A stretch of 27,491 nt of DNA from a virus (lineage: Duplodnaviria > Caudoviricetes): the IMG/VR virus record IMGVR_UViG_3300027756_001482, positions 1-27,491 of that record; one strand, 5' to 3'. The notes beneath the pieces are model-generated. The model saw nothing but the letters and a program-made list of their open reading frames with translations, made no database searches and was not told the origin of the DNA. The translations under genes and the position numbers were made by a program. Positions 1,721 to 25,318 of the stretch are shown here, piece by piece. Each line of letters begins with the position of its first letter. Positions within the stretch are counted from its first letter, which is position 1.

Positions 1721-2185
1721 ATGACTACTCGTGTTTACGAAAGATACACTTGCAAATTTAAAGATTCAGGCGGACTATTACGTCGTTACCAATACTTCAA
1801 AAACGATACACCACATGTAGATAGTTTGATAATTGTGACCGGCCAGCAATTTTTGTTTCTTGAGTCCTTGAAATCACAAGGCAAATGGAAAGGCGAAATT
1901 ATCTTGGGAGGGGAAGAAGGGTTCAGCATTGTGGATTCTTACAAGTTCTTACCATATGATCTTCCCGAAGGCCATGAAGCACTGGGCCAAACTGAGAGAA
2001 TTGGACAACGTTGGTATCTTACTGACATGACCATGGAAGAATATGATATTCAAGAACTGGCCTGGTTTACCAATCTGGATATGGTCGAGGATTGCAATCA
2101 TGTGCTTGCAGGACTGGATCAAATGCGCAATGATCCAAATGTTGAATGGCTCATGGATTGGACGTTGGTATCAACCACACCATAA
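1721..2185 (+). CDS. hypothetical protein (154 aa)
   Basis: Open frame; ATG 1721 with SD GGAG; no recognisable motif. Confidence 0.7.
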   Translation: MTTRVYERYTCKFKDSGGLLRRYQYFKNDTPHVDSLIIVTGQQFLFLESLKSQGKWKGEIILGGEEGFSIVDSYKFLPYDLPEGHEALGQTERIGQRWYLTDMTMEEYDIQELAWFTNLDMVEDCNHVLAGLDQMRNDPNVEWLMDWTLVSTTP

Positions 2186-2914
2186 CTGCTGTATTTCAGC
2201 AGCCTCAACCTGATGGGGTTTGGGCTGCCCGTGAAACACCACAACTGCTGTGTCGCCGGCTATTCTCACTCCAGCACCGGGATCGTTGAAAGATCTAGAT
2301 TCAAAATTGAATCCGCCATCAAGACACTGCCAACGGTAGCTCTGAAAATACCGGTCTTCAAAGTATCTTAGTTGATTCACATCCAGTGACGTGGTAATAT
2401 AATCTTGATCACCCGGATATTTTCGTGTTATTGCCGTGATGTCTTGGCGTTCAAAATCTTGCCACAGCCAAGAAAAACGTGAGACATTGAACCACATGAC
2501 ACTGCTGTTGAGCCCACTGAATCCTGATCTTTGTAGATATCTGAAATCTCGTATGCCCCAAAAATAATCTGTATGACACCGAGTGATCCAAGAGATGTCT
2601 CTCACAATCACTGTGTCAAGATCAAAGTACAACATATTTCCTTGATAGTGTTCGGGATTGAACAACTGCATTTTGTACCACCATGATCTTTTGAGTCCCG
2701 ATACACCAGGCCATTCAGTCAAACAGTGTTTGATCATGTGGGGGGGCACTGACCGATCATGTTCAGTATACACATGTAAACGGATACCCCCAGGCAAGGC
2801 ACGTGTCAACATATTGTACAAATGTTCTACATAAATCCAACTGTAACCTGATCCGTGTATCACACACGCACAATCGGTCACTGTGTCAGTTCGGTTCTGA
2901 TTCTTTTTAGCCAT
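2171..2914 (-). CDS. GT-A fold glycosyltransferase (GT8-like)
   Basis: WWYKMQLF, DxD motif LYFDLDTVI, NSSVMWF, GDQDYI, VVFHGQPKPH. Confidence 0.8.
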   Translation of the reverse strand: MAKKNQNRTDTVTDCACVIHGSGYSWIYVEHLYNMLTRALPGGIRLHVYTEHDRSVPPHMIKHCLTEWPGVSGLKRSWWYKMQLFNPEHYQGNMLYFDLDTVIVRDISWITRCHTDYFWGIRDFRYLQRSGFSGLNSSVMWFNVSRFSWLWQDFERQDITAITRKYPGDQDYITTSLDVNQLRYFEDRYFQSYRWQCLDGGFNFESRSFNDPGAGVRIAGDTAVVVFHGQPKPHQVEAAEIQQLWCG

Positions 2915-3729
2915 AGTCCTTCCCGTAGTTCTTGCACAGTATATTCAGTGTGGCATATCTTGATCAACCAGGCTTCCCTGTCTATTTCATAAGGTTGTTC
3001 AATGTCTGCATACCCCACTGCCACAGGATATGCCAAACTTGATTGATCCACGATGGGTCTGCAGCCCGAGATCGCTGCTTGTATGCCCGGTCCCGAATTG
3101 AGGTTTACAACTGCATGACAATTGAAGTGCATGTCAAATCCATCATAGGTGTTGGGCACGGGTCTAGCAACTTCTATTGTGGTATTTTCGGGCAGGTATG
3201 GCATGCGCAGTGGACTTCGTGGATGTGCTCGTATGCGTATGGGACGGTCTGTTGAGTTTCTCAACAGTTGTATTTGTGTTAATATCCATTCTTCCATGCT
3301 ACCTAGACCAGCAACTTGTAAACTGCGTTGATGTTGTGCGGCAATAACAATTTCTGGTCTAGTACTGAGCTGATTGGCCAAACTTATACGTAACTTTGCA
3401 GGGCGGCCTGAGTCTAAATTTTCTTGATGACCGTAATATCCTGCACTGGTAATATGGTTCACAGCCACTTTCCACGTTTCGCCACGATACAATGCACCTA
3501 CTTCGATAATTATCACTGGCCGGCCTTGACTGCGATAGTGCTCATACACTGCTTGATTTGGTCGCATTCTACCATGCCACAACACTGACCAGATTACCGC
3601 AGCATCAGCGTCCCAGACATTCTCTCTTGTTTGTATTCCGGCCGCTTGACAACAATCCAAAAAAGCTGCCATCACTGGTTTTGAATTCATTGCACACTGG
3701 GCAGGAAAATAGGCTATGGTTTTGATCAC
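2878..3729 (-). CDS. KpsC/KpsS-like (Capsule_synth) GT-B glycosyltransferase, paralog 1
   Basis: IEVGAL, TDRPIRIRAHPRS, CHAVVNLNSGPGIQAAISG; likely GTG start at 3729 avoids overlap with the divergent gene. Confidence 0.65.
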   Translation of the reverse strand: MIKTIAYFPAQCAMNSKPVMAAFLDCCQAAGIQTRENVWDADAAVIWSVLWHGRMRPNQAVYEHYRSQGRPVIIIEVGALYRGETWKVAVNHITSAGYYGHQENLDSGRPAKLRISLANQLSTRPEIVIAAQHQRSLQVAGLGSMEEWILTQIQLLRNSTDRPIRIRAHPRSPLRMPYLPENTTIEVARPVPNTYDGFDMHFNCHAVVNLNSGPGIQAAISGCRPIVDQSSLAYPVAVGYADIEQPYEIDREAWLIKICHTEYTVQELREGLWLKRIRTELTQ

Positions 3730-3731
3730 TG

Positions 3732-3737
3732 TAAATA
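3732..3737 (+). promoter_or_regulatory. putative late promoter TAAATA
   Basis: 5 nt upstream of ATG 3743, at the head of the plus-strand operon. Confidence 0.55.
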
Positions 3738-3742
3738 CACCG

Positions 3743-4546
3743 ATGAAATACACTGTAGTTACCACTTTCAATGCCCAAGGATACAACTCTTACGGCCGTC
3801 GTATGATACAAACTTTTCTGCAGAATTGGCCCCAGGACATACTGCTCCGAGTGTATGCCGAAGGATGCCACGTAACTGAAACAGCACCCAATTTACAAGT
3901 GTTGGATCTGGAAGGTGTCAGTCCCGAATTAGTAGTATTTAAAAACACCTGGCGTGATGTGCCCAAGGCCAATGGAGATGTCACAGCAGATCCCGTTAGA
4001 TCAAAAAGAAAAGATGCAGGCAAGGGATTCAAATGGCATGCTGTGAGATTTGCTCACAAGGTGTATGCTGTATTTCATGCTGCCAATAATTGCAACACAG
4101 AATGGTTGATTTGGATGGATGCTGACATGGTGTGTCACAGCCCAATGACTGTGGAGAAATTATCCAAATTCTTTCCAGACTCAACAGATCTTTGTTTTGC
4201 TGGGCGCAGTAGAAAATTTTCTGAATGTGGCCTATACGGCATGCACATCACTGAGCCAGCAGTGAGATCCTGGCTGGCAGAGTTTCAGCAAATGTATGAT
4301 GATGCCGAATTGGGTATATTCACCTTGGACGAATGGCATGACAGTTATGTATTTGATGCAGTGAGAAAACGTCATTCCCTGCGAGACCTCAATTGGACAG
4401 CACATTTGCAAATGGGCGAGGGCCATCCCTTGATCAACTGCGAATGGGGCGCATACATTGATCATCTCAAAGGCGAGCGCAAAAGTCTTGGCCGAAGTCG
4501 ATCATCAGACATACGAGTGAACAGAAACGAAAGTTATTGGAGATGA
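3743..4546 (+). CDS. GT-A fold nucleotide-diphospho-sugar transferase
   Basis: VVTTF start, RFAHKVYA, DxD motif WMDADMV, SECG, EWHDSYVFD, DHLKG. Confidence 0.75.
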   Translation: MKYTVVTTFNAQGYNSYGRRMIQTFLQNWPQDILLRVYAEGCHVTETAPNLQVLDLEGVSPELVVFKNTWRDVPKANGDVTADPVRSKRKDAGKGFKWHAVRFAHKVYAVFHAANNCNTEWLIWMDADMVCHSPMTVEKLSKFFPDSTDLCFAGRSRKFSECGLYGMHITEPAVRSWLAEFQQMYDDAELGIFTLDEWHDSYVFDAVRKRHSLRDLNWTAHLQMGEGHPLINCEWGAYIDHLKGERKSLGRSRSSDIRVNRNESYWR

Positions 4547-5346
4547 TATTTCTCAGCAAGAACGGTGATGACGAATATATTGACATGTATGCACACGGGC
4601 TTGGGCTTGAGTCTACACCCTTGGAGACCTGGCGTTACGAGGACAGCACAGAGCCACTAATGCTACGTGGCATCATGAAACACAAGATCATCAAACAGTG
4701 TTGGGCAAATCAACGCCCATTTAGATACATGGACTCAGGATATCTGGGCAATCGTCCCAGTTCAAAAAATCCTTATGGGTGGAAGCACTGGCACCGCATT
4801 GTGCCCAACAACTTGCAACACGATCAAGTGATACCACGTGCTGGTGATCGTTGGAGTCAGCTGGGCATAACCATTGCGCCGCGTCAACATGGCAGTTCAA
4901 TATTGATCGTGGCGCCCGATGAAAAACCTTGCCAATTCTACAACGTGACATTAGAAACATGGATCAATGAGACCATTGAAACTATCAGGCAACACACTGA
5001 CAGACCCATCGTCATGCGTGAACGCAATCGCAGCCGTACTCAACGCAAACACAATCGTGTGGAACATGCCCTGCAGGATGTGCATGCCGTGGTAACATTC
5101 AACAGCATTGCTGCCACTGAATCGGTCCTGGCAGGCACACCTGTATTTGTTTTGGCACCATGCAATGCAGCTCGTCCTGTAGCCAACCTGGACTTGAGTA
5201 AAATTGAGACGCCTTGGTTTCCTGATTCAGATCAAATACACGCCTGGGCCTATCATTTGGCCTATGGGCAGTTTCACATAGACGAATTTCGAAACGGCAC
5301 AGCCGAGCACATAATTAAACAAACTGAGGAGATACTGAATGATTGA
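4543..5346 (+). CDS. KpsC/KpsS-like glycosyltransferase, paralog 2
   Basis: LRGIMK, YMDSGY, HTDRPIVMR, HAVVTFNSIAATESVLAGTP, LAYGQF; ATGA overlap with the upstream stop. Confidence 0.65.
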   Translation: MIFLSKNGDDEYIDMYAHGLGLESTPLETWRYEDSTEPLMLRGIMKHKIIKQCWANQRPFRYMDSGYLGNRPSSKNPYGWKHWHRIVPNNLQHDQVIPRAGDRWSQLGITIAPRQHGSSILIVAPDEKPCQFYNVTLETWINETIETIRQHTDRPIVMRERNRSRTQRKHNRVEHALQDVHAVVTFNSIAATESVLAGTPVFVLAPCNAARPVANLDLSKIETPWFPDSDQIHAWAYHLAYGQFHIDEFRNGTAEHIIKQTEEILND

Positions 5347-5989
5347 GCATTATGGATGGAAATTCCCAGACTTTGAAACACACCTTCCGCGAATGTTGAA
5401 AAAAAGTGTGGACAAAGGTCTCCCAGCCGAATATCAAGTGGCTGTGCGTCGGCGAAGCATTGAGCTGTGCACCAATCGAGACCTGGCCCTGGACATTGGT
5501 GCCAATGTGGGCTTGTGGAGTCGTGACTTTGTTGGCAGTTTTGCTCGTGTGATAGCATTTGAACCAGTAGTTGTGTTTAGAGAATGTCTGGAACACAATG
5601 TGCAAGGCAAGAACTTTGAAATTCAGCCAATTGCCCTGGGTGATCAAGACACACAAGGTACCATGATCATCACTGAGGACAATTCTGGGCACAGTCATTT
5701 AGACCCTGCCACCATAGGCACTGGCAATGTGCGGGTTGTTCGACTGGATACATTGAATTTTCCTGCTGTCAGTTATATAAAAATTGACTGCGAAGGATAT
5801 GAATATCGTATCTTGCAAGGCGGGGAACAAACCATTCGTCGTTGTAGACCCGTGATAGTGATAGAACAAAAACCACACGATGCGTACAGCAAACAATACG
5901 GACAGTTTGCGGCAGTGGAGTTATTGCAATCCTGGGGCATGGTCAAACTAGATCAAGTGCGTGACGATTGGATCATGGGATGGCGGTGA
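5339..5989 (+). CDS. FkbM-family methyltransferase
   Basis: LDIGANVG, VIAFEP, IALGD, RLD, YIKIDCEGYE, PVIVIE. Confidence 0.9.
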   Translation: MIEHYGWKFPDFETHLPRMLKKSVDKGLPAEYQVAVRRRSIELCTNRDLALDIGANVGLWSRDFVGSFARVIAFEPVVVFRECLEHNVQGKNFEIQPIALGDQDTQGTMIITEDNSGHSHLDPATIGTGNVRVVRLDTLNFPAVSYIKIDCEGYEYRILQGGEQTIRRCRPVIVIEQKPHDAYSKQYGQFAAVELLQSWGMVKLDQVRDDWIMGWR

Positions 5990-6654
5990 GTGATTATTAT
6001 CTCGAAAGCGTAGCAGCTGGTCGTCGCTTTCAACAACAAAACAAAAGTTGGGCAGGATACGATGTTGTAAAATATCAAAACAAAATCCGTGATCTTGTCC
6101 GTCGTTACAATGCCCGGACCATACTGGATTACGGCTGTGGCAAAGGATTACAGTACTCTGACCCACTGCCTTATGGTGCCAAACCAGATTTGGAATTGCC
6201 CCAAGATCAATGGCAAACATTTGATCAATATCTAGGTGTTACTGTGTACTGCTATGATCCTTGTGTGGCAGAATTTGAAACACCACCACCGCCAGATGTG
6301 AAGTTTGATGGTGTGATCTGTACACAGGTATTGAACAGCATACCCGATGATGACATGACTTGGGTTCGACACACATTAGAACGTCATGCTGACAAGTTTT
6401 GTTTCATTGGCCTTAACTTTCAACGTGCGGCCAAGAGCAAGAAAATCATGTATGACTCAGCGTACTTTTGTGAATCCAGAACACGCGAGTTCTTTAAAAA
6501 ATACTATGCAGATTGGTCAGGCAGTGATTTGTTCTGGTGGTTCAAAGATCGCCCACACTATGAAGGGTGGATGGATGATCAGTTGTGCGGCACTTGGCAG
6601 GACGTGCCGGAAACATTTGTTGATAAGTACGAGTTTGTGAAAGTAAATTACTGA
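5986..6654 (+). CDS. class I SAM-dependent methyltransferase
   Basis: ILDYGCGKG, YDP, FDGVICTQVL; GTGA start/stop overlap at 5986-5989. Confidence 0.85.
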   Translation: MSDYYLESVAAGRRFQQQNKSWAGYDVVKYQNKIRDLVRRYNARTILDYGCGKGLQYSDPLPYGAKPDLELPQDQWQTFDQYLGVTVYCYDPCVAEFETPPPPDVKFDGVICTQVLNSIPDDDMTWVRHTLERHADKFCFIGLNFQRAAKSKKIMYDSAYFCESRTREFFKKYYADWSGSDLFWWFKDRPHYEGWMDDQLCGTWQDVPETFVDKYEFVKVNY

Positions 6655-7211
6655 TGATAATTGATCCCGAATATCAAGCACAATTAGCCAAAATGCACAG
6701 TCGAGGTCAATTTGTTAGAGGCAGCAAAATACTGGGAGCCGTGCGTCCATTTATAGATCAGTACCTGCCTGCCAGTATCATGGATTTTGGATGCGGGCAC
6801 GGTGCCTTAATGGCCAGTATCAATCAAGCATATCCTGATATTGTAGTAGAAGGATATGACCCAGGAAACCCCAATCACAATCACATGCCAACAAGGTCAT
6901 TTGATGCTGTGGTCAGTGCTGATGTGTTTGAGCACATTGAACCCGAACACCTGGCCAGCACGTTGCAGTTGATCGGTGATAAAATACAAATTGCAGGTTG
7001 GTTTAGAATTGCTTGTTATCCTGCTAAAAAACACTTGCCCGATGGGCGTAATGCTCACTTGATAGTGGAGTCACCCGACTGGTGGCGGCAACAACTGTTG
7101 GCCAACATGAATGTTGTTATAGTCAAAGAAAAGATCTCAGTGCTTGACAAGCGACACAAATGGCCAGACGTCGTGGGTCAAGTGTACGATGTCACTGTGG
7201 AAGTCAAATAG
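6654..7211 (+). CDS. class I SAM-dependent methyltransferase
   Basis: IMDFGCGHG, GYDPG, FDAVVSADVFEHI, DGRNAHLIV. Confidence 0.85.
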   Translation: MIIDPEYQAQLAKMHSRGQFVRGSKILGAVRPFIDQYLPASIMDFGCGHGALMASINQAYPDIVVEGYDPGNPNHNHMPTRSFDAVVSADVFEHIEPEHLASTLQLIGDKIQIAGWFRIACYPAKKHLPDGRNAHLIVESPDWWRQQLLANMNVVIVKEKISVLDKRHKWPDVVGQVYDVTVEVK

Positions 7212-8128
7212 GGCAAGAATTTTTGATAGATGCGACCTTGGCGTGCGTCCTCATCACTCCAATGTGCAGCAGCTAGATCCCATATCCATTGCTCTCGAGA
7301 AAACTTAGCAGGTGTTTCAATCTTGGCAATGTCATGATTGGCCACAGACCATGCCACACAACTAGAATCATCCACAAATACCGGTATACCAGCACACGCC
7401 GCTGCCACACTCGAACTGCTGTTAAAAAACACTGCAGAATGTGCAGTGGCTAGATTATCAACTAGACTGGTTGACAACTGATCTTGCACATGTACATTGA
7501 GCTGTTGTCGATAATGTTTGCTCCGGAATTGTTCAAAATCTTCTCGACGATAAGCGCCTGGATGAGGCCTGATCAATATGGTTCGATTGGTATGGGATCT
7601 CAACTGATCAATTTTGTTCTTTAACCAATCAATGGGATCCAGTGTTTTCATTGCAAAACCGCCATCTCTCTGCATGCAAATTAAAATATAACCATCTGGG
7701 TTTTTTTGCCGGGGTTGCAAGCTGATATTCAGCGCCTGACTTATTTCTTGCCATTTTGTCCCAGTGCTATTACGATTGGCATATTCTGCACGATCATAAA
7801 ACGGTCCGCCGACACTGTATCTCAAATAACTGCTGTGGTCATCTAAATACTTCCAACAACTGGCATCGATACACATGGTATGAAAACCCTGTCTGCGCTG
7901 ATCAGCAATGATTTGTTTGCGCAGATCAATGTTTCGACCACCTGTATTGGTAGTGGCCCAGCCCAGCATCACTGCCAGTCTGCTGGGTGTGTATCGGTGT
8001 TCCCATTCTACCACAACCGAATCTCCCGAGGCACGCACTCCCTCGGCAAAACTTTCTAAACACTCAATTTTTCTTGTGTGTTTTTTTGGGTTAGCTACCG
8101 AACTGATGTAAACCACACAATCAACCAC
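7178..8128 (-). CDS. KpsC/KpsS-like glycosyltransferase, paralog 3
   Basis: ILICMQRDGG, TNRTILIRPHPG, AHSAVFFNSSSSVAAACAGIPVF; probable GTG start at 8128 (track start 8158). Confidence 0.65.
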   Translation of the reverse strand: MVDCVVYISSVANPKKHTRKIECLESFAEGVRASGDSVVVEWEHRYTPSRLAVMLGWATTNTGGRNIDLRKQIIADQRRQGFHTMCIDASCWKYLDDHSSYLRYSVGGPFYDRAEYANRNSTGTKWQEISQALNISLQPRQKNPDGYILICMQRDGGFAMKTLDPIDWLKNKIDQLRSHTNRTILIRPHPGAYRREDFEQFRSKHYRQQLNVHVQDQLSTSLVDNLATAHSAVFFNSSSSVAAACAGIPVFVDDSSCVAWSVANHDIAKIETPAKFSREQWIWDLAAAHWSDEDARQGRIYQKFLPYLTSTVTSYT

Positions 8129-9122
8129 CTTGCAATATTCTCCAGGCTGTGCCATCACGCATTTCTGCTTCGGTGAATTGGCAATAGGCCATGTGTCTGG
8201 CCCAGGCTTCTACTTCATCCAAACTGGGGACACGTAGGTTTTCTATTTCACTTATGCTTTGACTACACAGCGGTGCGGCTGCATTTGGGCCTAAGGTAAT
8301 GGCTGGCTTACCGTGTAGCAGGGCTTCGCCTGCGGCAATACTGGAAAATGTGACCAAACAATGTACATCACGATCCAGGGCCATTTCTATGGTATCATTG
8401 TTGACTCTGGTGCTGCGACTTTGTTTGGTGCGTATTATTACAGGTCGGTCAGTGTGTGCGCGAATTTCAGCTTGTACGGTTTCTAACCAATCCTCAAGTA
8501 TGATATCATAGTTGTTGAGTAATTTTTGACTGGGAGGAGCCAACAGTATGCTGGTTCCTCGAGTCATCTTCTGCAGCTTTACTGAGGTTTTTTTTAATCT
8601 GTCCCCGGGACGGTCAACAATGTCTCCAAACCATTGCACATCATTTTTTGTTATTCTGTGATAGAGTTTTTTCTTGCTGTTGCCAAAATATCCAGTATCA
8701 ATATAAAAAAAATCTCGCCCGGCTTCACGACATGCTTCCATCTGTTTGCGTTTGGTAATACCACGCAACACCACTGGAGTCATGTTAAATTCTTCTCGAG
8801 ACCAGTTACTGATTTGACCACCAGCACCTTGCACAAAACTTTGCAGGATAGGATCGTACATGTGACCTTTTCTTTCATATCTGTATTCACTATCAGTGCT
8901 TACAATGTTGTTGACTGGTAGAGCCGAGAGTTGTTGACTCAAGGTCTCAAGTGTGATGCCATAAGTGAATCCTGCAGGATCCACTCGATATTTCAGTATG
9001 TTGTCGAATATTGTGCGTATTTCTGGTACCACCTGGTCTAACACATGTGGTTCAACCGCAGCTGGTGATTCAGGCGTAGGCAGAACATATGTGGTCTCGT
9101 CTTCTTGTTCCCAATCATTCAT
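8121..9122 (-). CDS. KpsC/KpsS-like glycosyltransferase, paralog 4
   Basis: LRGITK, YIDTGYFG, HTDRPVIIR, HCLVTFSSIAAGEALLHGKP, MAYCQF; clearly similar to 4543-5346, with an N-terminal extension. Confidence 0.65.
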   Translation of the reverse strand: MNDWEQEDETTYVLPTPESPAAVEPHVLDQVVPEIRTIFDNILKYRVDPAGFTYGITLETLSQQLSALPVNNIVSTDSEYRYERKGHMYDPILQSFVQGAGGQISNWSREEFNMTPVVLRGITKRKQMEACREAGRDFFYIDTGYFGNSKKKLYHRITKNDVQWFGDIVDRPGDRLKKTSVKLQKMTRGTSILLAPPSQKLLNNYDIILEDWLETVQAEIRAHTDRPVIIRTKQSRSTRVNNDTIEMALDRDVHCLVTFSSIAAGEALLHGKPAITLGPNAAAPLCSQSISEIENLRVPSLDEVEAWARHMAYCQFTEAEMRDGTAWRILQGG

Positions 9123-10567: not shown

Positions 10568-10573
10568 TATTTA
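10568..10573 (-). promoter_or_regulatory. putative late promoter TAAATA
   Basis: 5 nt upstream of ATG 10562, at the head of the minus-strand operon 10562-7178. Confidence 0.55.
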
Positions 10574-11343: not shown

Positions 11344-11349
11344 TATTTA
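11344..11349 (-). promoter_or_regulatory. putative late promoter TAAATA
   Basis: 4 nt upstream of ATG 11339. Confidence 0.5.
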
Positions 11350-16103: not shown

Positions 16104-16189
16104 ATATTTTAAAATCATCAAAGATATTCACATAATGTTACATTATTTTTGAAAATATATAGATGTCGCATACAGAGAATAGATCGCAA

Positions 16190-18023: not shown

Positions 18024-18052
18024 AGTATATGCGCTTTGTGTCTACGTGTCAA
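18024..18052 (-). promoter_or_regulatory. sigma70-like promoter TTGACA-N17-TATACT for the SSB gene
   Basis: tgtcaa 18047-18052, agtata 18024-18029. Confidence 0.8.
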
Positions 18053-18055
18053 GAG

Positions 18056-18063
18056 TATTTATA
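18056..18063 (-). promoter_or_regulatory. T4 late promoter consensus TATAAATA
   Basis: tatttata on +; exact gp55 consensus immediately upstream of the sigma70-like promoter. Confidence 0.7.
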
Positions 18064-20145
18064 TCATCTGAGCAAAGCCAATGATTTTATTCTTGCCAGA
18101 AGTGCATCGCCTTCTTGGATGTCCGTTTCTTTGCCTTCATAGTAGCTGCCGGTCATGGCTGAGTTTGAGTTGATAGGGTCATCTTCTCCCAAGGCGCCCC
18201 GAACATTACCTTTGGCCAATTTCATCAATGGATCGCCAATGTCTTTCTTGATTTTTTGCCCAAATGTGCGCGGCTCGTCCGCACGTTGTGCCAATCTCTT
18301 TTCAGCATCATCAGCACGTTGTTGTATCTGCATTGATCGAACCAGAGCATCCATTTCTAATTCTTTTGTATGCGGTTTTTCGCCTTCGCCCATGCTGTAG
18401 GGCATGCCCACTGCACCACCATCTTCATACATGCCGCCACATTCGGCCAAGCCGTGTTCTGGGCAGTAGTCACCTTCCATAGTCATGTTGCATGAACCTT
18501 CGCTAACAGGCATGATCATTGGACTGATGAGATTTTCTTTTATACCAAGGTCCTCAGAAAAACGATCACTGATCCATTCATATGGATCACCGTCTCGAGC
18601 TTTCTTTGTACCATAAGGCATGTCATCAAAGTAGTAGTCATACAACGCATCATACAATGCGTCACTCATGTCACCGTTTTGGGTGAAATCTTTGACATCA
18701 CGCCGGAATGTGTTTTTGATGTGTTCTAGTGTGCTGCCTGTTGAATCGGTCAATACGCTTTCTTTCACTGGTACGCCCGCATATTTCAGCATCTCGGCTA
18801 ATTCACGATCTTGCTCAAATGTACTCATGTTGTCTCCTTCTGCCACAGGAGGTGCAGCAGGAGCAGCCGCTGGTTGTGCTGGTGCTGTGTCTTGTTCAAC
18901 GTCAGCAGGTTCCGCTTGTGTGCTTTGGGGAGTTTGAATGCCCAGTTCAGCCAGTCTACGTTGTACATCTGAGTCGTCCCAGATGTTGGCACGGCCTTGA
19001 CTCTTATCAGCTAGGTCGTTCAAGATATCAAACAGCTCATCATCGCCCACAATGCTGTACAACAATTCGGTAGCATTGGTGGCATCGGGACCAACTATGA
19101 GTTCTCCACTCATCAGTTGGTTGAGTTTTTCCATTTGTTCAGGAGTTTCTGGCAGTGCCCAGGTGCCTTCACTTAGGTTGTTGATCCAGTTTTCAAATAT
19201 TTCGGCTTCTTTCATGTTGTTTCCTTGTTGTTGTATCTTGGCCAGTGTGGGCAAGGCAGCTTCAATTCTAGCGTCCAGGGTCTGTTCCACAAACAGGTCG
19301 CGTAGATTTTCTACCAGGGCTTCGGCTTCACCTGTTTGGTCAGGAGCCCAGGTTTCAAAGTATGCTTGATAGCCACGTGGGCTGCCAAGATGCCTGACGG
19401 TTTCTTGTAGGCTGTGATAGTATTGTCGTGCGCTTTCCACCAGCTCTTGTGTGACACCTTCGTACACACGATGGTGTTGCGCACGATTGAAACGACTCAG
19501 CACTGCCATTTCGCTGACAATTTCTGTGATATGGTTGCCACGAACATCGTAGGGACGACCGCCCGAACGCACATGTTCCAGCATGGCTCTGCCGCCGGCC
19601 AGACTTTTGAATGGCAAACGGAAACGTTCTTGGTCAGCTGTTTCGATAAACAAACTTTCCACGTAGCGAAAACGTTTGTCATTTTCGCCCAGCTGACGAT
19701 TGTGATTGATCACCAGTCGGGCCTGAGTTTGTTCGCCCATGTAACTCACCCGACGATTGCCATAGTAGCCTTCAAACAGGCCTTCTTTGATGGCAGCAAT
19801 ACCAGCCAGTGTGTGTTTCAGTTGATTGATGTCCTTGGGACTCCACGTGGCCGAGTGGCTGGCTGCTTTGTTGCTGAGTTCTTCCAGGAAAGTGAACCAG
19901 TCTTGTTTGTCATCAGGATCCATGCCCCGGCCCAGATTGTCACCATAAAACAAACTGAGCTCGTTGTCAGCTACTACGCACACTGCGGTGCCGTAGTTTT
20001 TGCCAGTGCCGGCCACGTAATCAAACTTTATGGTTTTGGCATCACCTGCTTCAGCAGGTTGGCCTTGGTCATCAAAATATTCTGGGTCAAAATTGCGTGT
20101 GACCAGGAAATCTGCTAGATCTTGAGGTAATGCTTCCATTGTCAT
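18064..20145 (-). CDS. large acidic hypothetical protein, probable head/prohead-core associated (693 aa)
   Basis: Directly downstream of terminase, late motif upstream; low-complexity acidic C-half with repeated hydrophobic-x-E-G/S motifs and a CNMTMEGDYCPEHGLAEC cluster. Confidence 0.7.
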   Translation of the reverse strand: MTMEALPQDLADFLVTRNFDPEYFDDQGQPAEAGDAKTIKFDYVAGTGKNYGTAVCVVADNELSLFYGDNLGRGMDPDDKQDWFTFLEELSNKAASHSATWSPKDINQLKHTLAGIAAIKEGLFEGYYGNRRVSYMGEQTQARLVINHNRQLGENDKRFRYVESLFIETADQERFRLPFKSLAGGRAMLEHVRSGGRPYDVRGNHITEIVSEMAVLSRFNRAQHHRVYEGVTQELVESARQYYHSLQETVRHLGSPRGYQAYFETWAPDQTGEAEALVENLRDLFVEQTLDARIEAALPTLAKIQQQGNNMKEAEIFENWINNLSEGTWALPETPEQMEKLNQLMSGELIVGPDATNATELLYSIVGDDELFDILNDLADKSQGRANIWDDSDVQRRLAELGIQTPQSTQAEPADVEQDTAPAQPAAAPAAPPVAEGDNMSTFEQDRELAEMLKYAGVPVKESVLTDSTGSTLEHIKNTFRRDVKDFTQNGDMSDALYDALYDYYFDDMPYGTKKARDGDPYEWISDRFSEDLGIKENLISPMIMPVSEGSCNMTMEGDYCPEHGLAECGGMYEDGGAVGMPYSMGEGEKPHTKELEMDALVRSMQIQQRADDAEKRLAQRADEPRTFGQKIKKDIGDPLMKLAKGNVRGALGEDDPINSNSAMTGSYYEGKETDIQEGDALLARIKSLALLR

Positions 20146-20152
20146 AGTGGTG

Positions 20153-20158: not shown

Positions 20159-21736
20159 GCGCATCATTGATACAAACGGCATGGGCTCGATGATGTTGTC
20201 TCCGTGATCTTTCATTTGTGTGTCCAGTTCTGCATGATATGTTTGCAACAGCATGAGCATGCGTACCACCAACAGCGAGCTCATCACAAGATCGTCTGTT
20301 TCGCCAGGTTTGGCAGCATAACTGCCGCCCGACGCAACAAAAGTTTTGAGCTCAGAGATTAAAGGCCTGCTGTGCAGTCGCATGCGCCCGGATTCCACTA
20401 AGATTTTGAACTTGCTACAGGCAGTGAGTTTGGCACGGTTTGTGGTGTTGAATCCCTTGCGGAACCTGCGACCTGTTGTGCCTGTTACTGAATTGTCGCT
20501 GAGAAAATAGCCCCGGATGTTTTCTTCACCGTATTCGTTTATGGAAATCAAGGCCGCTTCACCAATGGTGTTGTTTTCCACTGAGTAGTAGATCTGTTTG
20601 TCGTCTTTTGTAACATCGTACAGTTCATTCACAATGTCGGCTAAGAGTTTGACTTGTGTGGGAATGTCAGTTCGGTTGTGTCGCCACTCGGCCACTTGTT
20701 CTGTGGTGTCTGCTTCAAACACCTGTATGGCAGCAGGATCGCCACCTGTGCCCAGACTGGGGTCTAAGGCCACAATGTATATCTTGTCTTTGACAGGAGT
20801 TTTGTACCAACGCACCTGTCCTGTGCGGCGATTGGGTTCCACGCCTTCCAGATCAATCAATTTTGTCGGAGCAATCAAGGTTTCATCATTAATCACAAAC
20901 TCACATTCCATTTCTCTACGAAATCGATCTTCGCCCAACTGCGCCAGTTGCTCTGCACCCCAGGTATCGCCACGGTCAGGATGCTCGCGCCAGTTGCTTC
21001 TAAATGCACGGAATCCATTGATGCCCAGTTTGGTGGTGTTGCCATGCTCGTCTTCAGTTTTGTTGGCGCCTTTCCACAACAAAGCAAACTGGTCTTCGTC
21101 TGAGTTGGGAGTACTGGTGATGATGGCCTTACCACCTGTGGCCAGTGTGGGTGAAATAGAAGTCCAAAACTCTCGGGCAATGGTGGGACGCACAAACGCA
21201 AATTCGTCGGCATATAGGAGTGAAATACTCATACCCCGGCCTGTTGTTTCTGTAGTGGTCTGGGCCACGATACGTGATCCGTTTTCAAATTCCAATGAAT
21301 TCTTGTTGTAACTGGTGGCACCGGCTCGGATATGATTGGGGCACAGTTCGTATGCATATCTAATGCGTTGCATGATCTCCTGTGCGCCTGTGTATTTGTG
21401 TGCAGCCACAAGTATAGTTGAGTCAGGAACAAACATGGCATACCACAACAGATAACCAGCGGCTGACGTTGACTTGCCAGTTTGTCGAGGCATTAGACTT
21501 ATTGAGTATCTATAGTTGTGATAGGTTTCAATCAGTCGAGATTGATACTCAAACGGATGGTACAGCATCTTGCCGCGTGTGGGATGCTGAATATAAAAAA
21601 AGTGATCCAAAAAATACAAGGGTCCGGTCACGGAGTCAGCACAGGCCGCAAACTCTATAAGTTCTTGTTCAGTGTACACTTCCTTGCGGTGCGGTGCTTT
21701 GACCAAGACCGTTTCTAAATTATTTTGGATAGCCAT
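20156..21736 (-). CDS. terL: terminase large subunit (T4 gp17-like)
   Basis: FEYQ (Q motif), Walker A MPRQTGKST, Walker B LLYADEFAF, coupling motif ITSTPN, nuclease VALDPSLG, VENN, DDLVMS. Confidence 0.95.
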   Translation of the reverse strand: MAIQNNLETVLVKAPHRKEVYTEQELIEFAACADSVTGPLYFLDHFFYIQHPTRGKMLYHPFEYQSRLIETYHNYRYSISLMPRQTGKSTSAAGYLLWYAMFVPDSTILVAAHKYTGAQEIMQRIRYAYELCPNHIRAGATSYNKNSLEFENGSRIVAQTTTETTGRGMSISLLYADEFAFVRPTIAREFWTSISPTLATGGKAIITSTPNSDEDQFALLWKGANKTEDEHGNTTKLGINGFRAFRSNWREHPDRGDTWGAEQLAQLGEDRFRREMECEFVINDETLIAPTKLIDLEGVEPNRRTGQVRWYKTPVKDKIYIVALDPSLGTGGDPAAIQVFEADTTEQVAEWRHNRTDIPTQVKLLADIVNELYDVTKDDKQIYYSVENNTIGEAALISINEYGEENIRGYFLSDNSVTGTTGRRFRKGFNTTNRAKLTACSKFKILVESGRMRLHSRPLISELKTFVASGGSYAAKPGETDDLVMSSLLVVRMLMLLQTYHAELDTQMKDHGDNIIEPMPFVSMMR

Positions 21737-22487
21737 CTACAAATTTCTTGGTTAGTATGGTGTGAATTTTTGGGCCACCGTGCATGTAGTCCCGGGCATA
21801 GCCAATTTCTTTACGACTCCACCACATGTGATCTTCTGCATTGAGTATAGTGCATGGTATATCTAAATCTGCACACAGTTGTCTTATTGCTAGAATATTT
21901 TTGCGCTGATTTATTTTTGCATTTTCTCCATTTATAAACCAATGCTTGAGGTAGTGATCATTGGCACTAAACAAAATGCTTTGACTTTGTGGCAAGAACA
22001 CTTCCACAGGTAGATGCCGATGTAACAAGTCCCCATCATCAAGCAATAGTTCGAGTCTGCTGCGTGGTGGTACCAACATGCACACATACTCTGGTTTGAA
22101 TTTTGGCACCCAATACTCAGCCAGTCGGTAGCAAGAGTCTGCGCTGTACCCTCCCCAGGCCAAGTTGGCACATTTCAATCCCAGAGCAGCAGCAGTTTGT
22201 TGTGCCCAGGTTGCTTCGTTGGGCAAACCAATGCCGAATGTGTAACTACAGCCCAGTGCTATCATGCATGGGCCGCCGTCAAATTCATCGCAGCGGAATC
22301 CATGGCTATTGAATTTGTAGGTGATTGCACCTGGTTGATCCCAACCCAGCTTGGCAAAATACTCACGATGTTCAGGATCTTGTATCAGTTTTTCATAATT
22401 TTCTTTGGTGTCAGTGGGCATCCAGTCTAGAGTTTGACCAGCTTGAAATTTTCCAAAATGATGCGGGGGGTTTTTAAATGTTGTCAT
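21720..22487 (-). CDS. SGNH/GDSL-like protein
   Basis: YKFNSHGFR, ALGCSYTFGIG, NLAWGGYS, C-terminal RDYMHGG (DxxH). Confidence 0.65.
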   Translation of the reverse strand: MTTFKNPPHHFGKFQAGQTLDWMPTDTKENYEKLIQDPEHREYFAKLGWDQPGAITYKFNSHGFRCDEFDGGPCMIALGCSYTFGIGLPNEATWAQQTAAALGLKCANLAWGGYSADSCYRLAEYWVPKFKPEYVCMLVPPRSRLELLLDDGDLLHRHLPVEVFLPQSQSILFSANDHYLKHWFINGENAKINQRKNILAIRQLCADLDIPCTILNAEDHMWWSRKEIGYARDYMHGGPKIHTILTKKFVDGYPK

Positions 22488-23619
22488 ATTGAGGCCATAA
22501 CTGTTTGAATGTTGTCGTTTTGTTCAGTTCTTTTTCTACACGATGATGAAATTCTTGTGCCACTGGTTGGTAATCAGCTGTCACTAGATAACTGTTGTCC
22601 AGTAGTGTCAACCGATAACGTCGTAGGGTGTCTGTGGCCAAGTTGGACCAGTTTTGATCGTTTCCATACTTGGTCATTACGCGGTCAATTTCTTCAATGG
22701 CCTGCTGACGCATGGATTTGGGATATCGCCTGATGTCCAAATCCCACGGATGTATGAGTTCGCACCAAAATATATCAAGGCCTTCAGCAACACAAAAATC
22801 ATAGTATTCAACCAGGTCAAATGCACAATAAATGCTGTATGCTGGATGTGCAATTACTTTTTGTGCATGTTGTTTCATGACATGGATATTATTGACAAAT
22901 ATTTCCCAACTGGCTCTGTCTCTAACATACTCAAACTTGTGTTGATTGGCATTGTCAAAACTGATTAGCCAATCTACCTTGGGCCAGGTGCGTAATTCAT
23001 TATAGATGGCATTGTTGGTAATATCAATGCTGAGATTTGTAGTCACAAGCACCTGCACTTGATCGGGATTTAGGCACGCTAAAAAGTCCAACAGTCCTTT
23101 TTGTAACAGAGGTTCGCCACCACCTAGACTTAGTCCCACAACTGAATGCCCGTGTTCACGTGCTAGTCGAATTAGATCAGGATGTTCATTTTTCACATGA
23201 TTGATAGGAATACCCTTGATACTTTGCCAGGCAGTGCTGGTTTCGGGATTGCAATAAACACAGGTCAAATTACACAAGTTACTCCAGTTTACCACAATGT
23301 GTTCTAGCTCAAAGTAGTTAACAGGATCCTGTTCAATTGCTGCCAAGGTTTCAGGTTTGGCATAACGCACTGTGCGACCACTGGCACCTGTGGTTTCTTC
23401 CAGTTGCTTGCACCATGAGCAGCCGGGTGCCCACTCACCACGTGCCATGGCCTGTTTCATGCCAGTCACCACAGGTCCTGCAATGACTTCTTGAATGGTA
23501 TTTTTCTTTATGTTGCCAATCATGTCCACACAATGAAAGCAAGGACTGACTTCACCAGCTTGATTAATGTTGAGGCTGGTCCAGGGTGCAGGACAAAATG
23601 TGGGGCTCGAAGATATCAT
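22474..23619 (-). CDS. radical SAM protein with N-terminal twitch/SPASM-like domain
   Basis: FCPAPW..GEVSPC..IGNI..GCSWC, then CNLTCVYC, GGGEPL, TTNL, FEYVR; ATGA overlap at 23616-23619. Confidence 0.9.
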   Translation of the reverse strand: MISSSPTFCPAPWTSLNINQAGEVSPCFHCVDMIGNIKKNTIQEVIAGPVVTGMKQAMARGEWAPGCSWCKQLEETTGASGRTVRYAKPETLAAIEQDPVNYFELEHIVVNWSNLCNLTCVYCNPETSTAWQSIKGIPINHVKNEHPDLIRLAREHGHSVVGLSLGGGEPLLQKGLLDFLACLNPDQVQVLVTTNLSIDITNNAIYNELRTWPKVDWLISFDNANQHKFEYVRDRASWEIFVNNIHVMKQHAQKVIAHPAYSIYCAFDLVEYYDFCVAEGLDIFWCELIHPWDLDIRRYPKSMRQQAIEEIDRVMTKYGNDQNWSNLATDTLRRYRLTLLDNSYLVTADYQPVAQEFHHRVEKELNKTTTFKQLWPQYDNI

Positions 23620-24185
23620 TTTGGGGTAATCCATGTGTAACTAGTGAGTCTGAATGTGTTGGCTGGCACAGGTGTGAGCATGCCATGCCATTGTAATCTT
23701 CTAAACTCTTGTGAGTTGGGTTGATTGATCATGACATATCCTGAGTTGGCTTGCATAAGAAATTGATGTCTCAGTGAGTTTGAATCTTTGTAGTTGTAAA
23801 ATGATGTACCAAGATTTAATTGACTGCCAATCCAAAACAACTGCATGGCTCCGGGCATTTCTCCGTCTGTGTGTATATTGCATGTGAATCCTGGTTCGTC
23901 AACCCACCAGGCTGTGCTTGAATCAGTGCCTGAATGGTTGTGCAGTGTCATGCCAATAGATTCAGCAATACCGGGCCATAACTGTTGACAACATTGATTC
24001 CAGTATGCCATCCAAGGTATCACCGCGCTGTTTATCTTTCTACGCCGCCAGAACTCTTGACCCGATTGCTTGGTCCAGGCAAGACTCATCCACGGTGTAC
24101 ATAAAATTTGATCAACCAGATCTGCAGGCATGATGTCTCTCACCCAGAACAAATTGTTTTCGTCATCAACCGCGGTTATTTGCAT
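23616..24185 (-). CDS. 2OG-Fe(II) oxygenase superfamily protein
   Basis: HTD...WHG facial triad, GTSFY, NSGY, C-terminal R (FRLTSY). Confidence 0.75.
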   Translation of the reverse strand: MQITAVDDENNLFWVRDIMPADLVDQILCTPWMSLAWTKQSGQEFWRRRKINSAVIPWMAYWNQCCQQLWPGIAESIGMTLHNHSGTDSSTAWWVDEPGFTCNIHTDGEMPGAMQLFWIGSQLNLGTSFYNYKDSNSLRHQFLMQANSGYVMINQPNSQEFRRLQWHGMLTPVPANTFRLTSYTWITPK

Positions 24186-25318
24186 AGCATCCTCAGCTCT
24201 GGCCATAGTTGTTCAAACTTGCCAGCAGTGTCCGGATGATACCGGGTTTCATTATCATGTATGTGTTGTCGGAACTGCTGTGCAATTCCTCTACGTTCTT
24301 GCGTGACCGCACGATAGTTACTCAGTGCCTGATCAAAGAACTGCCGTTCAGCTGGTGTGGCCATACCCATGGCATAAAAATGTTCAATCTCTGCCGCAGC
24401 AAGGTCAGCCACAGCAGGTCCATGCAAGAATGGGTCCAGGTATTCAGGTTGAAACAAATTCTGCCATAACACCGTGGCTCCTGCTGATTCAACAAACTGT
24501 CTGAACTCACAGACACGTGTGGCATTGTACATGTTGTACACTGCATGCACACCGCCCCATTGACCTTGCGACTTCATCAGGCCTTGTATGATGTTTAGAT
24601 TTTCTTGCAACACTGTCCATGATCCGCCATGCCGCACATACTCAAAACGATCACCTATGTTGTCAAAGCTCATGCTCCAGCCCACTTGTTTACGTTGTGC
24701 CAGCTTGCGAAATATCCGGTTGGTTTGTAAATCTACATTCAGGTTGGTAATCAGGGTCACAATGGCAGTGTCTGGGATTACATCTAATAATCGATTGTTC
24801 TCTGGCAGCAACAATGGTTCGCCACCTACCAAGGCAACTTCATGTATGTGTTCATAATGCTGTTCAATAAAATCACACACCTGTTCATAGTAGGGTCTTG
24901 TGCCTGATTTAAAAGGTATGTTTTTGATGCCTGCCCATTTTGAACTGCATGCTTCCCCGCAGTAGTTGCAACTCAAGTTACAAGTGGTGTTCCAACGCAC
25001 ATCCACAATCACAGGGTAGTGATATTGGTCGCCTGCTGCGGCATAATCAAAGTCGGGGTTGACATTGTTGTGCCATTGTCGTTCTGAATCTGCGCCAAAG
25101 CGTTCGGCTCGCACACAGTTGGAACAGTAGTCATGCGCTTGTCCTTGTGCTAGACTGGCACGTATTTCAGTCATCAACTTTGAGTTGAGTATTTTTTCTA
25201 TTGACTGTGTTTCAAGATTGCCCAGCATGTTGGGGTTGCCAGCACAACAGGTTTTGACGTCACCACGGGGATTGATATGTAAGCCACGCCAGGGCGCTGC
25301 ACAGTAAAAGTTGCTCAT
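24176..25318 (-). CDS. radical SAM protein with N-terminal twitch/SPASM-like domain
   Basis: FYCAAPW..GDVKTCC..LGNL..YCSNC, then CNLSCNYCGEACSSKW, VGGEPL, ITNL, FEYVRHG. Confidence 0.9.
   Translation of the reverse strand: MSNFYCAAPWRGLHINPRGDVKTCCAGNPNMLGNLETQSIEKILNSKLMTEIRASLAQGQAHDYCSNCVRAERFGADSERQWHNNVNPDFDYAAAGDQYHYPVIVDVRWNTTCNLSCNYCGEACSSKWAGIKNIPFKSGTRPYYEQVCDFIEQHYEHIHEVALVGGEPLLLPENNRLLDVIPDTAIVTLITNLNVDLQTNRIFRKLAQRKQVGWSMSFDNIGDRFEYVRHGGSWTVLQENLNIIQGLMKSQGQWGGVHAVYNMYNATRVCEFRQFVESAGATVLWQNLFQPEYLDPFLHGPAVADLAAAEIEHFYAMGMATPAERQFFDQALSNYRAVTQERRGIAQQFRQHIHDNETRYHPDTAGKFEQLWPELRMLCK

Follow-up and report, generated by a model that had tools for sequence, protein, structure and literature searches.

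A conserved glycan-building cassette of an uncultured jumbo myophage, predicted to be expressed mainly late and possibly acting on the virion

Across the literature covered, mycobacteriophages are the only tailed phages for which virion glycans are cited. The available text of PMC12619734 cites glycans of their capsid and tail tube, and a block of glycosyltransferases (GTs) with an O-methyltransferase in Corndog (gp35-38) was proposed, in the accessible part of PMC4351075, to modify the capsid. The locus described here lies in a stretch of 27,491 nucleotides (the window) and resembles that block, as far as the same part of PMC4351075 describes it, in its soluble GTs, its O-methyltransferase type and its late or morphogenesis context. 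However, it belongs to a jumbo myophage, has a glycan that is predicted from its genes and contains seven GTs, four of them with a CMP-Kdo-transferase fold, next to exchangeable radical SAM (rSAM), SGNH and 2OG genes; no sequence homology to the mycobacteriophage enzymes was seen in the homology searches run. Capsid glycosylation in the chlorovirus PBCV-1 (A064R, A061L) likewise combines a cytoplasmic viral GT-A enzyme with chain-capping class I methyltransferases, although in a eukaryotic virus and from early genes. In a Foldseek-based second look, the model of the GT-A enzyme at 3743-4546 (pLDDT 83) gave a tie of BoGT6a, the PBCV-1 capsid GT and LARGE1 (VIA Z 14.0-14.4); the match to A064R-D1 (Z 14.0, 13% identity) is one of fold only.

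Among bacterial enzymes, the retaining CMP-Kdo transferases KpsC (GT107), WbbB (GT99) and KrkA are the best fold matches of the Kps-like GTs (Z 11.5-13.0); two paralogues also carry the RxHP and NS motifs, and there is a weak WbbB profile match. Unlike them, the cassette GTs (11-15% identity) lack QxxxD and PF05159, two paralogues have no HP, and no capsule export genes accompany them. The same families occur at 23-44% identity in cultured phages, namely, in Colossus gp126-131 and CcrSC, Mosig 183-191, P1 pmgO/P/Q and the "cell-wall" clusters of the cyanophages P-SSM2 and S-SCSM2R, which share the adjacent Kps-like pair, the GT8 and the methyltransferase; however, those cassettes are smaller, gave no twitch rSAM match and, in Colossus and P1, include Maf-like genes not found here. 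As for transcription, the T4 gp55 late promoter (TATAAATA) has a counterpart in a gp55 homologue of the relative G001 and in a motif that is overrepresented upstream of structural genes and present upstream of SSB as well, whereas the motif here is a hexamer, TAA[AG]TA, with a short-spaced class lacking a Shine-Dalgarno sequence and predicted to be leaderless. Our literature search, with most subscription journals outside its coverage, returned no paper describing the cassette; in the literature covered, GT clusters of large aquatic phages are usually filed, untested, as host-surface or DNA-modifying genes.

A conserved core and an exchangeable accessory layer

The source is an uncultured jumbo myophage; its own genome is only 8% complete, while that of G001 (331 kb) is 95% complete. 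The first-pass annotation had reported about 20 glycan-type enzymes among terminase, SSB and uvsX/Y, and 20 enzyme-type open reading frames are indeed found in 2171-25318, interspersed with TerL, SSB, uvsX and uvsY (Table 1). Its enzyme labels fared unevenly. Family matches bear out the GT8, GT2-like and PmgQ-like GTs, FkbM and three other methyltransferases, the nucleotidyltransferase-cupin and three rSAMs (NF033640). Fold and a weak profile match underlie the Kps-like GTs, and the 2OG label is based on motifs only. The SGNH label stood for 21720-22487 only, the GT10-like call at 15135-16121 is a weak lead, and no family matched 14315-15145. The single elaborate pathway of 20 late genes, also proposed earlier, is not supported: the slots of the rSAM, SGNH, 2OG, sulfotransferase-like and GT10-like genes vary, some of these genes are led by sigma70 promoters, and the set is scattered genome-wide. 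The 20 genes instead form two layers, a core and an accessory set.

Table 1. Features of the locus, with positions in the window
Feature	Position	Strand	Evidence or remark
GT-A glycosyltransferase, P1 PmgQ / P7 HdmD homologue, core	2171-2914	-	phrog_1962 E 2e-21; DxD at FDLD97
KpsC/WbbB-like GT-B, Q + RxHP type, core	2878-3729	-	alignment A7; start reassigned to GTG 3729
TAAATA late-type promoter motif (predicted)	3732-3737	+	5 nt before ATG 3743; TAA[AG]TA in 9/9 distinct upstream regions
GT-A glycosyltransferase (WMDAD), GT6/GT8/A064R-D1-like fold, core	3743-4546	+	PF00535 E 2e-6
Kps-like GT-B paralogue without HP, core	4543-5346	+	alignment A2; paralogy
FkbM-family methyltransferase, core	5339-5989	+	TIGR01444, 93 bits over cut-off
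Class I methyltransferase, variable slot of core	5968-6654	+	phrog_24759
Class I methyltransferase, Colossus gp130 homologue, variable slot of core	6654-7211	+	PF13489
KpsC/WbbB/KrkA-fold GT-B with QRD, RPHP and NSS motifs, core	7178-8158	-	model pLDDT 85.6
Kps-like GT-B paralogue without HP, core	8121-9122	-	alignment; paralogy
GT8 glycosyltransferase, core	9115-9804	-	PF01501 E 2e-7
HIGH-type nucleotidyltransferase (TagD/RfaE-II-like) fused to PMI-type cupin, core	9801-10562	-	PF01467, PF01050
TAAATA	10568-10573	-	5 nt before ATG 10562; kept in 14/18 distinct upstream regions
Methyltransferase in variable uvsY slot	10686-11339	-	TAAATA 11344-11349, 4 nt upstream
N-twitch rSAM, accessory, in sigma70-led uvsX-uvsY run	11797-13026	-	NF033640 171 bits
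Sigma70 promoter of uvsX (TTGACA-17-TATAAT)	14309-14337	-	12/12 match
Accessory protein, N-terminal PRxxGG motif	14315-15145	-	
Accessory, weakly GT10-like	15135-16121	-	Atlas PF00852 score 0.80-0.81, lead only
Accessory SGNH-like protein	16190-16918	-	GCSLT Ser motif only; PF19547 weak; no DxxH at expected place
SSB tandem promoter, TATAAATA + sigma70	18024-18061	-	sigma70 match 11/12
Virion structural protein, internal control for late motif	18064-20145	-	phrog_13484; TAAATA 7 nt upstream
Accessory SGNH hydrolase/acyltransferase-fold protein	21720-22487	-	invariant S81, G113, N, D233xxH236
N-twitch rSAM, accessory	22474-23634	-	NF033640 192 bits
Predicted 2OG-Fe(II) oxygenase, accessory	23616-24206	-	motif H112xD, H174, R186
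N-twitch rSAM, most conserved accessory	24176-25318	-	NF033640 207 bits; TAAATA 25323-25328, 4 nt upstream

The core spans 11 genes at 2171-10562: four KpsC/WbbB-fold GT-B enzymes, three GT-A enzymes, three methyltransferases and the nucleotidyltransferase-cupin. Conserved co-occurrence, whose absence had been named as a refuting outcome, was observed for these genes: all 11 are found in G001 at 59-80% identity with their order kept, and also in G002. Across loci, the nucleotidyltransferase adjoins the GT8 in 28/28, the GT8 adjoins a Kps-like gene in 27/28, and the GT-A-Kps-GT arrangement recurs in 9/9. In the window the cassette adjoins recombination genes. For several TerL relatives (~68-75% identity), the flank retrieved shows no cassette downstream of uvsY. 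Hydropathy over 19 residues stays at or below 1.5 in every enzyme. The PmgQ-like enzyme (2171-2914) matches P1 and P7 by tblastn (E 1e-11 to 2e-10) and G001 at 60% identity; its real start is probably downstream of 2914. The sole match in a prokaryote genome, a Haliscomenobacter metagenome-assembled genome, was rejected as evidence of a cellular homologue or host, being a co-binned phage contig with TerL, SSB and uvsX.

For the enzyme at 7178-8158, which has 739 homologues, the best Foldseek and VIA matches of the model are CMP-Kdo transferases, by the small margin of Z 11.5-13.0 against 11.2 for the next fold, and the profile of 2878-3729 matched only WbbB in the PDB (E 0.008); PDB profile searches with alignments A2, A3, A5 and A9 gave nothing meaningful. 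The HP motif, a feature of CMP-Kdo transferases of GT107 and GT99, is invariant in these two enzymes and absent from 4543-5346 and 8121-9122. The catalytic motif of KpsC and WbbB is QxxxD, with Asp as the nucleophile, and Asp adducts are named in PDB titles; at the sequence level, the Kps-like GTs lack QxxxD and have QRDGG and QHQRS instead. Pfam PF05159 matched 0/5 records at E<=1 and, among Atlas clusters, turned up in one, with a share of only 10%. Given the missing QxxxD, the lack of HP in 2/4 paralogues and the lack of a PF05159 match, Kdo as the donor is uncertain.

The accessory genes (rSAM, SGNH, 2OG and others) are exchanged between close relatives, and the slot of the rSAM at 11797-13026 is empty in 24/39 loci. 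All three N-twitch rSAMs exceed the 170-bit NF033640 cut-off and carry CxxxCxxC; the N terminus matches the BtrN twitch, and both BtrN and the cytosylglucuronate decarboxylase BlsE are among the enzymes of solved structure that the rSAM profile matches. The rSAM at 24176-25318 is 71% identical to its G001 homologue, and its unit continues into TerL. These proteins belong to a large enzyme family of phages, with 13 twitch rSAMs over the cut-off dispersed across the G001 genome; tblastn with two rSAM queries found no match among cultured phages (50,697 records), and a literature text search for a phage N-twitch rSAM family gave no paper. The SGNH protein at 21720-22487 matches GDSL 4rsh by profile (E 9e-4) with Ser, Gly, Asn and DxxH all present, and the HxD/H/R motif of the putative 2OG oxygenase is invariant in 10 sequences, with no Pfam or PDB match. 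The PRxxGG motif of 14315-15145 we take to be sulfotransferase or P-loop like.

A late-type promoter motif before core and structural genes

Four operon heads had been placed 4-5 nt downstream of TAAATA, and this proved accurate: the ATGs at 3743, 10562, 11339 and 25318 follow the end of the motif by 5, 5, 4 and 4 nt. The raw TAAATA count is at chance level (11 versus 10.3 expected in the window) and was discarded as evidence. Placement is another matter: 5/11 sites have an ATG-led open reading frame of at least 100 aa starting 3-8 nt downstream, versus 6/283 sites of the other hexamers that its letters can form (p=1e-5 for the difference). The earlier expectation that the motif marks structural genes was likewise borne out, with TAAATA lying within 35 nt upstream of 12/25 structural versus 0/22 replication genes (p=1e-4) and within 50 nt upstream of 12/25 versus 2/22; the site before the structural gene at 18064-20145 is kept in 24/24 upstream regions. 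G001 encodes a gp55-type sigma factor (phrog_12791, E 7e-74); the window fragment itself has none. These data support TAAATA as a predicted late-type promoter motif in this clade, and since the short-spaced sites lack a Shine-Dalgarno sequence, leaderless mRNAs are predicted.

The full T4 octamer TATAAATA did not emerge as a clade consensus, the conserved part being TAA[AG]TA; its only occurrence in the window (1/11 sites) is the TAAATA 133 nt upstream of SSB. Sigma70 promoters for uvsX and SSB, reported earlier, were both recovered, but that of SSB does not stand alone: TAAATA lies within 220 nt upstream of SSB in 43/44 distinct relatives, and the proposed contrast with the enzyme operons thus fails for this gene. 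The predicted late control of the enzymes covers the 14/20 (9/11 core genes) in TAAATA-headed units and not the other six. Three of these follow the SSB tandem promoter, a fourth sits in the interval from uvsX to uvsY, and 2878-3729 and 2171-2914 have no conserved motif upstream. For this last pair, an internal TAAATA at 3936-3941 was dismissed as a promoter, being present in 1/9 relatives, as was bidirectional use of the 3732 site, whose spacing is not kept. The minus strand from uvsY to 10562 showed nothing resembling a terminator, and transcripts started at sigma70 promoters may therefore run on into part of the core. Separately, freshwater metatranscriptome contigs align with 0-1 differences to parts of the window, among them 4027-4398, 8275-8639 and 10076-10490; they carry no strand, timing or level information and may reflect DNA carry-over, and hence were not taken as expression evidence.

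Possible products of the cassette

The analysis shows which genes the core contains, how they are ordered, their folds, the absence of membrane segments and the promoter motif. Beyond this, we somewhat favor the view that this conserved soluble glycan-building cassette is expressed mainly late and, while the virion is being assembled, equips at least one of its proteins with a methylated chain of acidic (Kdo-like) sugars. The gp55-type sigma factor would yield leaderless mRNAs from TAAATA; the supply of nucleotide sugars would fall to the nucleotidyltransferase-cupin and to pathways of the host, which as a source of CMP-Kdo would most plausibly be Gram-negative. A GT-A enzyme might then prime a Ser/Thr-rich structural protein, or extend a primer, after which the four KpsC/WbbB-fold enzymes would attach CMP-activated sugars and methyltransferases would cap the chain. 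Exchangeable rSAM, SGNH and 2OG proteins may edit donor sugars or chain; that these accessories act on the same product as the core we put at slightly under an even chance, and we infer that acylation and radical tailoring may act on the same glycan. The predicted folds are of transferase types that place glycans on glycans or on proteins, including the tied PBCV-1 capsid GT, and the locus shares with virus-encoded virion glycosylation its soluble GTs and methyltransferases and its lack of membrane machinery. Early expression, earlier held to refute a virion coat, is no sound argument against a virion glycan, as chlorovirus capsid-glycan transferases are themselves expressed early (accessible part of PMC9614988).

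Homologues in the tail or lysis modules of unrelated phages link the cassette to morphogenesis, and its TAAATA-headed units link it to predicted late control. In the Caulobacter phages Colossus and CcrSC, a block of two Kps-like GTs, GT8, methyltransferase, GT9 and Maf-like gene sits between the last tail protein and endolysin; it is absent in phiCbK. Homologues directly precede TerL in podovirus MW202713 and precede tail genes in Xoo-sp13, and P1 pmgO/P/Q lie downstream of the late promoter LPpmgL, with predicted sigma70 promoters closer than the late one. Pelagibacter phage Mosig, with its cassette among nucleotide-metabolism genes, is the exception. Several points tell against the virion reading: searches of G000-G004 gave no Maf-like transferase that could prime a protein, the window has its cassette next to recombination genes, six of the 20 enzymes stand outside TAAATA-headed units, P1 pmgO/P/Q have the closer sigma70 promoters, Kdo as the donor is uncertain, and several TerL relatives show no cassette in the flank retrieved.

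The earlier preference for a virion glycan over DNA hypermodification is maintained, on these morphogenesis-linked homologues and on the lack of a DNA handle enzyme in G001. Hypermodification by the cassette, for example, just before packaging, would suit genes that are mixed in with TerL, SSB and uvsX/Y and that sigma70 promoters can reach in part, and it could draw on the nucleoside-sugar substrate of BlsE, on a separate FolE/QueD/QueE+GT cluster in G001 and on a 2OG protein without an assigned family; we nevertheless regard it as improbable. An alternative hydroxyl handle is made by TET with a C5-methyltransferase. Glycosylated pyrimidines otherwise need the handle from a thymidylate-synthase homologue (available text of PMC13326640). 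With positive controls, neither a thymidylate-synthase-like nor a C5-methyltransferase handle enzyme was found in G001 or four fragments, G001 (95% complete) gave no PF00303, PF00145 or TGT match, and it uses ThyX; a Tet_JBP search gave no match, nor did its positive control. Hypermodified DNA relaxes restriction-site avoidance. Strong avoidance of certain restriction palindromes is seen in cassette-bearing genomes, namely in G001 (AGCGCT 0 versus 18.6 expected), Colossus (CCGCGG 0 versus 14.5) and Mosig (ACGT 0 versus 47.8), but it is weak evidence against DNA modification since the glycosylated control RB69 is not clearly different, with similar overall palindrome depletion (0.91).

Remodeling of the infected host's lipopolysaccharide (LPS) or capsule through lipid-linked precursors at the cytoplasmic face, serving superinfection exclusion or grazer evasion, is unlikely in our judgment, even though KpsC/WbbB, GT8, GT9, FkbM and RfaE-like families act in LPS and capsule synthesis, the S-SCSM2R GT8 homologue lies near KdsB/KdsA and G001 has a heptose-pathway-like block. 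Such a role has been published for cyanophage clusters (accessible part of PMC12801897). Late timing, however, leaves little time for surface replacement, tail-lysis or pre-TerL placement in unrelated phages fits assembly better, and the scan of G001 proteins (PHROGs 280, Pfam 94, of 404 called) turned up no flippase, no polymerase and no priming phosphoglycosyltransferase. We also assign a low probability to a product that is a glycolipid, a free oligosaccharide or a small molecule resembling the aminoglycosides, or to glycosylation of a host protein, with rSAM, amidinotransferase and carbamoyltransferase as tailoring set. The BlsE and BtrN matches of the rSAM profile and the DegT, carbamoyltransferase, MetK and NifU genes that G001 carries besides its 13 twitch rSAMs are in its favor; against it, seven transferases imply a long scaffold-borne chain, and the cultured phages have the core without a twitch-rSAM match.

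Returning to the virion glycan, we offer more doubtfully a wider version: a mobile cassette common to tailed phages of Gram-negative hosts (aquatic jumbo phages, Caulobacter siphoviruses and coliphage P1) might build a Kdo- or nonulosonate-type virion glycocalyx, serotype switched in the jumbo clade like an O-antigen locus through exchanged methyltransferases and up to a dozen N-twitch rSAMs making unusual sugars. A glycan coat, if real, would matter for phage stability, particle adsorption, grazing and immune recognition. The Colossus and CcrSC homologues, for which phiCbK, a phage of the same host without the block, is a ready-made negative control, and the nonessential P1 pmgO/P/Q make the question testable.

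A fixed core and variable accessory slots

The window is a 27.5-kb piece (8% complete) of the genome of an uncultured jumbo myophage whose TerL shares 54% identity with that of PA5oct/Paride, about 50% with those of Phosso and Atu_ph07 and 44 to 45% with those of GAP32/CBB; its relatives were found in about 2,000 IMG/VR stretches. For comparison, we used the relative G001 (331,654 bp, 95% complete, TerL 82% identical; 404 genes called with a simple custom caller, 280 scanned with PHROGs and 94 with Pfam) and two further relatives, G002 and G003, both fragments. Phage contigs of this clade, carrying tandem twitch radical SAM (rSAM) arrays, were also seen in a Haliscomenobacter MAG (L129; contigs C1 and C3 of G006), where they were probably co-binned.

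The first-pass annotation had counted about 20 enzymes of glycan-building or tailoring type, and twenty enzyme-type genes were indeed counted within 2171-25318, on family, motif and fold evidence whose strength varies by gene. These genes form two layers, not one pathway: an ordered core and variable slots. Order and strand are kept among the 11 core genes (2171-10562), with adjacencies of nucleotidyltransferase to GT8 in 28/28 loci, GT8 to Kps-like in 27/28, Kps-like to Kps-like in 22/24 and GT-A to Kps-like to GT in 9/9, counts that are not independent, since the loci are relatives of one another, chosen through TerL or a single Kps-like gene. All 11 genes are present in G001 (59 to 80% identity) and in G002, and variation within the core is mainly limited to the slot between the second Kps-like gene and FkbM; in G003, donor-pathway-type genes are inserted into the cassette. 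No cassette was found within the fetched flanks of more distant TerL relatives. The contents of the accessory slots change freely between loci (9 sets in 42 loci at SSB, 10 in 32 at uvsY, and 24 of 39 uvsX slots empty), and a search of G001 at E 1e-4 gave no match to either SGNH protein, the 2OG oxygenase or 14315-15145. The co-occurrence in relatives that the first-pass annotation named as a check holds for the core (11/11 in G001) and breaks down for these accessories. G001 also encodes 13 twitch rSAMs above the cut-off, dispersed over the genome, MetK (in the uvsY slot), NifU, UDP-glucose dehydrogenase, epimerases, DegT and a carbamoyltransferase.

Family matches comprised GT8, a GT2-like protein, a PmgQ-like GT, FkbM, three more methyltransferases, a fusion of a HIGH-type nucleotidyltransferase with a PMI cupin and, above the cut-off, three NF033640 rSAMs; none of the window's enzymes contains a membrane-like segment. 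The four Kps-like paralogues had no Pfam match and were assigned by fold. Foldseek ranked KpsC, KrkA and WbbB highest for the 7178-8158 model (pLDDT 85.6), and VIA scored folds of this type at Z 13.0, 12.4, 12.0 and 11.5, the next fold reaching 11.2; the sole PDB match of the HP-type paralogue profile was WbbB (E 0.008). QxxxD is the motif of KpsC/WbbB. Because QxxxD is absent from the sequences of the paralogues, HP is missing in two and a PF05159 search gave no match, we do not file these proteins in GT107 or GT99, although they probably work like members of these families.

Features of the window and of related stretches
Location	Strand	Feature	Observation
838-1687	minus	Four tandem early promoters	TTGACC-17-TATAAT, upstream of short genes; two have upstream stretch AAAGTAACACTTTTGTAGCACTTGACC in common
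1721-2185	+	154-aa TAAATA-led orphan	Converges on cassette; no Pfam or PHROG match, no homologue among fetched loci
2878-3729, 4543-5346, 7178-8158, 8121-9122		Kps-like paralogues	First and third are HP-type
2878-4546		Divergent genes at 3729 and 3743	13-nt gap holding TAAATA; leftward pair without identified promoter
3743-4546		GT-A	Fold tie BoGT6a/PBCV-1 A064R-D1/LARGE1, Z 14.0-14.4
14315-15145			Without assignment
15135-16121		Weak GT10-like lead
21720-22487		SGNH	SGNH residues invariant
23616-24206		Predicted 2OG oxygenase	HxD...H...R motif; no family match
26816-27142		Candidate glycan acceptor	Small, Ser/Thr-rich (26% S+T)
L140:18276-19401 (G003)		Candidate acceptors	Small, Ser/Thr-rich, TAAATA-led pair directly after cassette
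L091:1659-11110 (G001)		Distinct cluster, apparently driven by sigma70	GT-B-like, epimerase, DegT, FolE, QueD, GT2-like, MT, QueE, nucleotidyltransferase, SGNH-like; genome lacks a TGT match
L127:3593-6151 (phage P1)		"Putative morphogenetic" genes	pmgO, pmgP, ppp, pmgQ

TAAATA as a predicted late-type promoter

TAAATA is no more frequent in the window than expected by chance; what sets it apart is its placement at gene starts, both there (5/11 sites versus 6/283 for control hexamers) and in G001 (39/170 versus 2 to 7% for 11 control hexamers), a genome that also encodes gp55. That the motif marks structural genes was borne out: with categories picked by hand from PHROG matches, it lies within 35 nt upstream of 12/25 structural versus 0/22 replication genes (P = 1e-4), and within 50 nt of 12/25 versus 2/22. 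Spacing to the ATG is bimodal across G001 to G003, at 3 to 8 nt and 14 to 33 nt. A Shine-Dalgarno-like word accompanies 28/35, 9/9 and 13/17 of the long-spaced sites in G001, G002 and G003, respectively, and none of the short-spaced ones (0/31, 0/8 and 0/11). From this lack, the late transcripts of the glycan genes are predicted to be leaderless.

Among relatives, the motif is kept upstream of the virion protein gene at 20145 in 24/24 cases, of the GT-A gene at 3743 in 9/9 (two of them TAAGTA) and of the nucleotidyltransferase-cupin gene at 10562 in 14/18, falling to 15/34 best-hit homologues of the rSAM gene at 25318 and 1/5 of the methyltransferase gene at 11339; it was absent upstream of uvsX (0/40) and uvsY (0/38). 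SSB, set apart in the first-pass annotation as having a sigma70 promoter, carries TAAATA and a sigma70 promoter in tandem in 43/44 relatives. Likewise, the view that TAAATA heads the glycan operons needs amending for four accessory genes behind sigma70 promoters and two core genes without a conserved motif; it stands for the rest. No terminator-like site was found between the uvsX run and the core. For PA5oct, the available text reports only TATAATA/TTGAC promoters (PMC7318152).

Likely product and target

We somewhat favor the reading that the core builds a methylated, acidic-sugar chain on a virion protein. Such a chain would be assembled in the cytoplasm late in infection and attached with the help of an acceptor, donor and priming enzyme that we infer; no Maf-like primer was found in the window's clade. 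Precedents are the virion glycans of mycobacteriophages (PMC4351075, in part; Freeman 2023 as cited in PMC12619734 and PMC10877033) and chlorovirus capsid glycans. Since PBCV-1 capsid GTs are expressed early, according to the portion available (PMC9614988), timing is not decisive in principle.

A free glycan, metabolite or host protein as product or target seems unlikely, and we give similarly little weight to the host surface, to which similar unexplained cyanophage clusters were assigned in the accessible part of one publication (PMC12801897). DNA is the least probable target. One known route to glycosylated cytosines begins with TET. A Tet_JBP search was negative, and no control rang in it. 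The other route starts from a thymidylate-synthase homologue, as the text at hand describes (PMC13326640); searches of G001 for PF00303, PF00145 and TGT gave no match, while their controls were detected, which argues against DNA. Restriction-site avoidance was strong at some sites but did not differ clearly from that of the RB69 control.

Homologues in unrelated phages

Among 50,697 records, the Kps-like query matched 17, the GT8 query 19 and the GT-A query 2; two rSAM queries had no match among cultured phages. In Colossus and CcrSC, the stretch separating the last tail protein from the endolysin holds Maf-like, two Kps-like, GT8, MT and GT9 genes, which are missing at the corresponding place in phiCbK and Kikimora; a word search of Gill 2012 (PMC3556154) found neither "sugar" nor "glycosyl." GT-A, MT, Kps-like and DegT genes lie immediately upstream of TerL in podovirus MW202713, and a Maf-Maf-MT/GT set lies upstream of tail genes in Xoo-sp13. 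Counting against a link to morphogenesis, Mosig has homologues of FkbM, both GT-A types, GT8 and two Kps-like proteins among nucleotide-metabolism genes. Finally, P1 PmgQ, a GT-A, is a homologue of 2171-2914, and PmgO/P are homologous to Colossus gp126 (Maf/MptE-like) and, weakly, to PF01973. These P1 genes, non-essential according to the part of the source available (PMC10695390), lie downstream of the late promoter LPpmgL and also of predicted sigma70 promoters; judging from these homologies, a small module for protein glycosylation may be present in P1.
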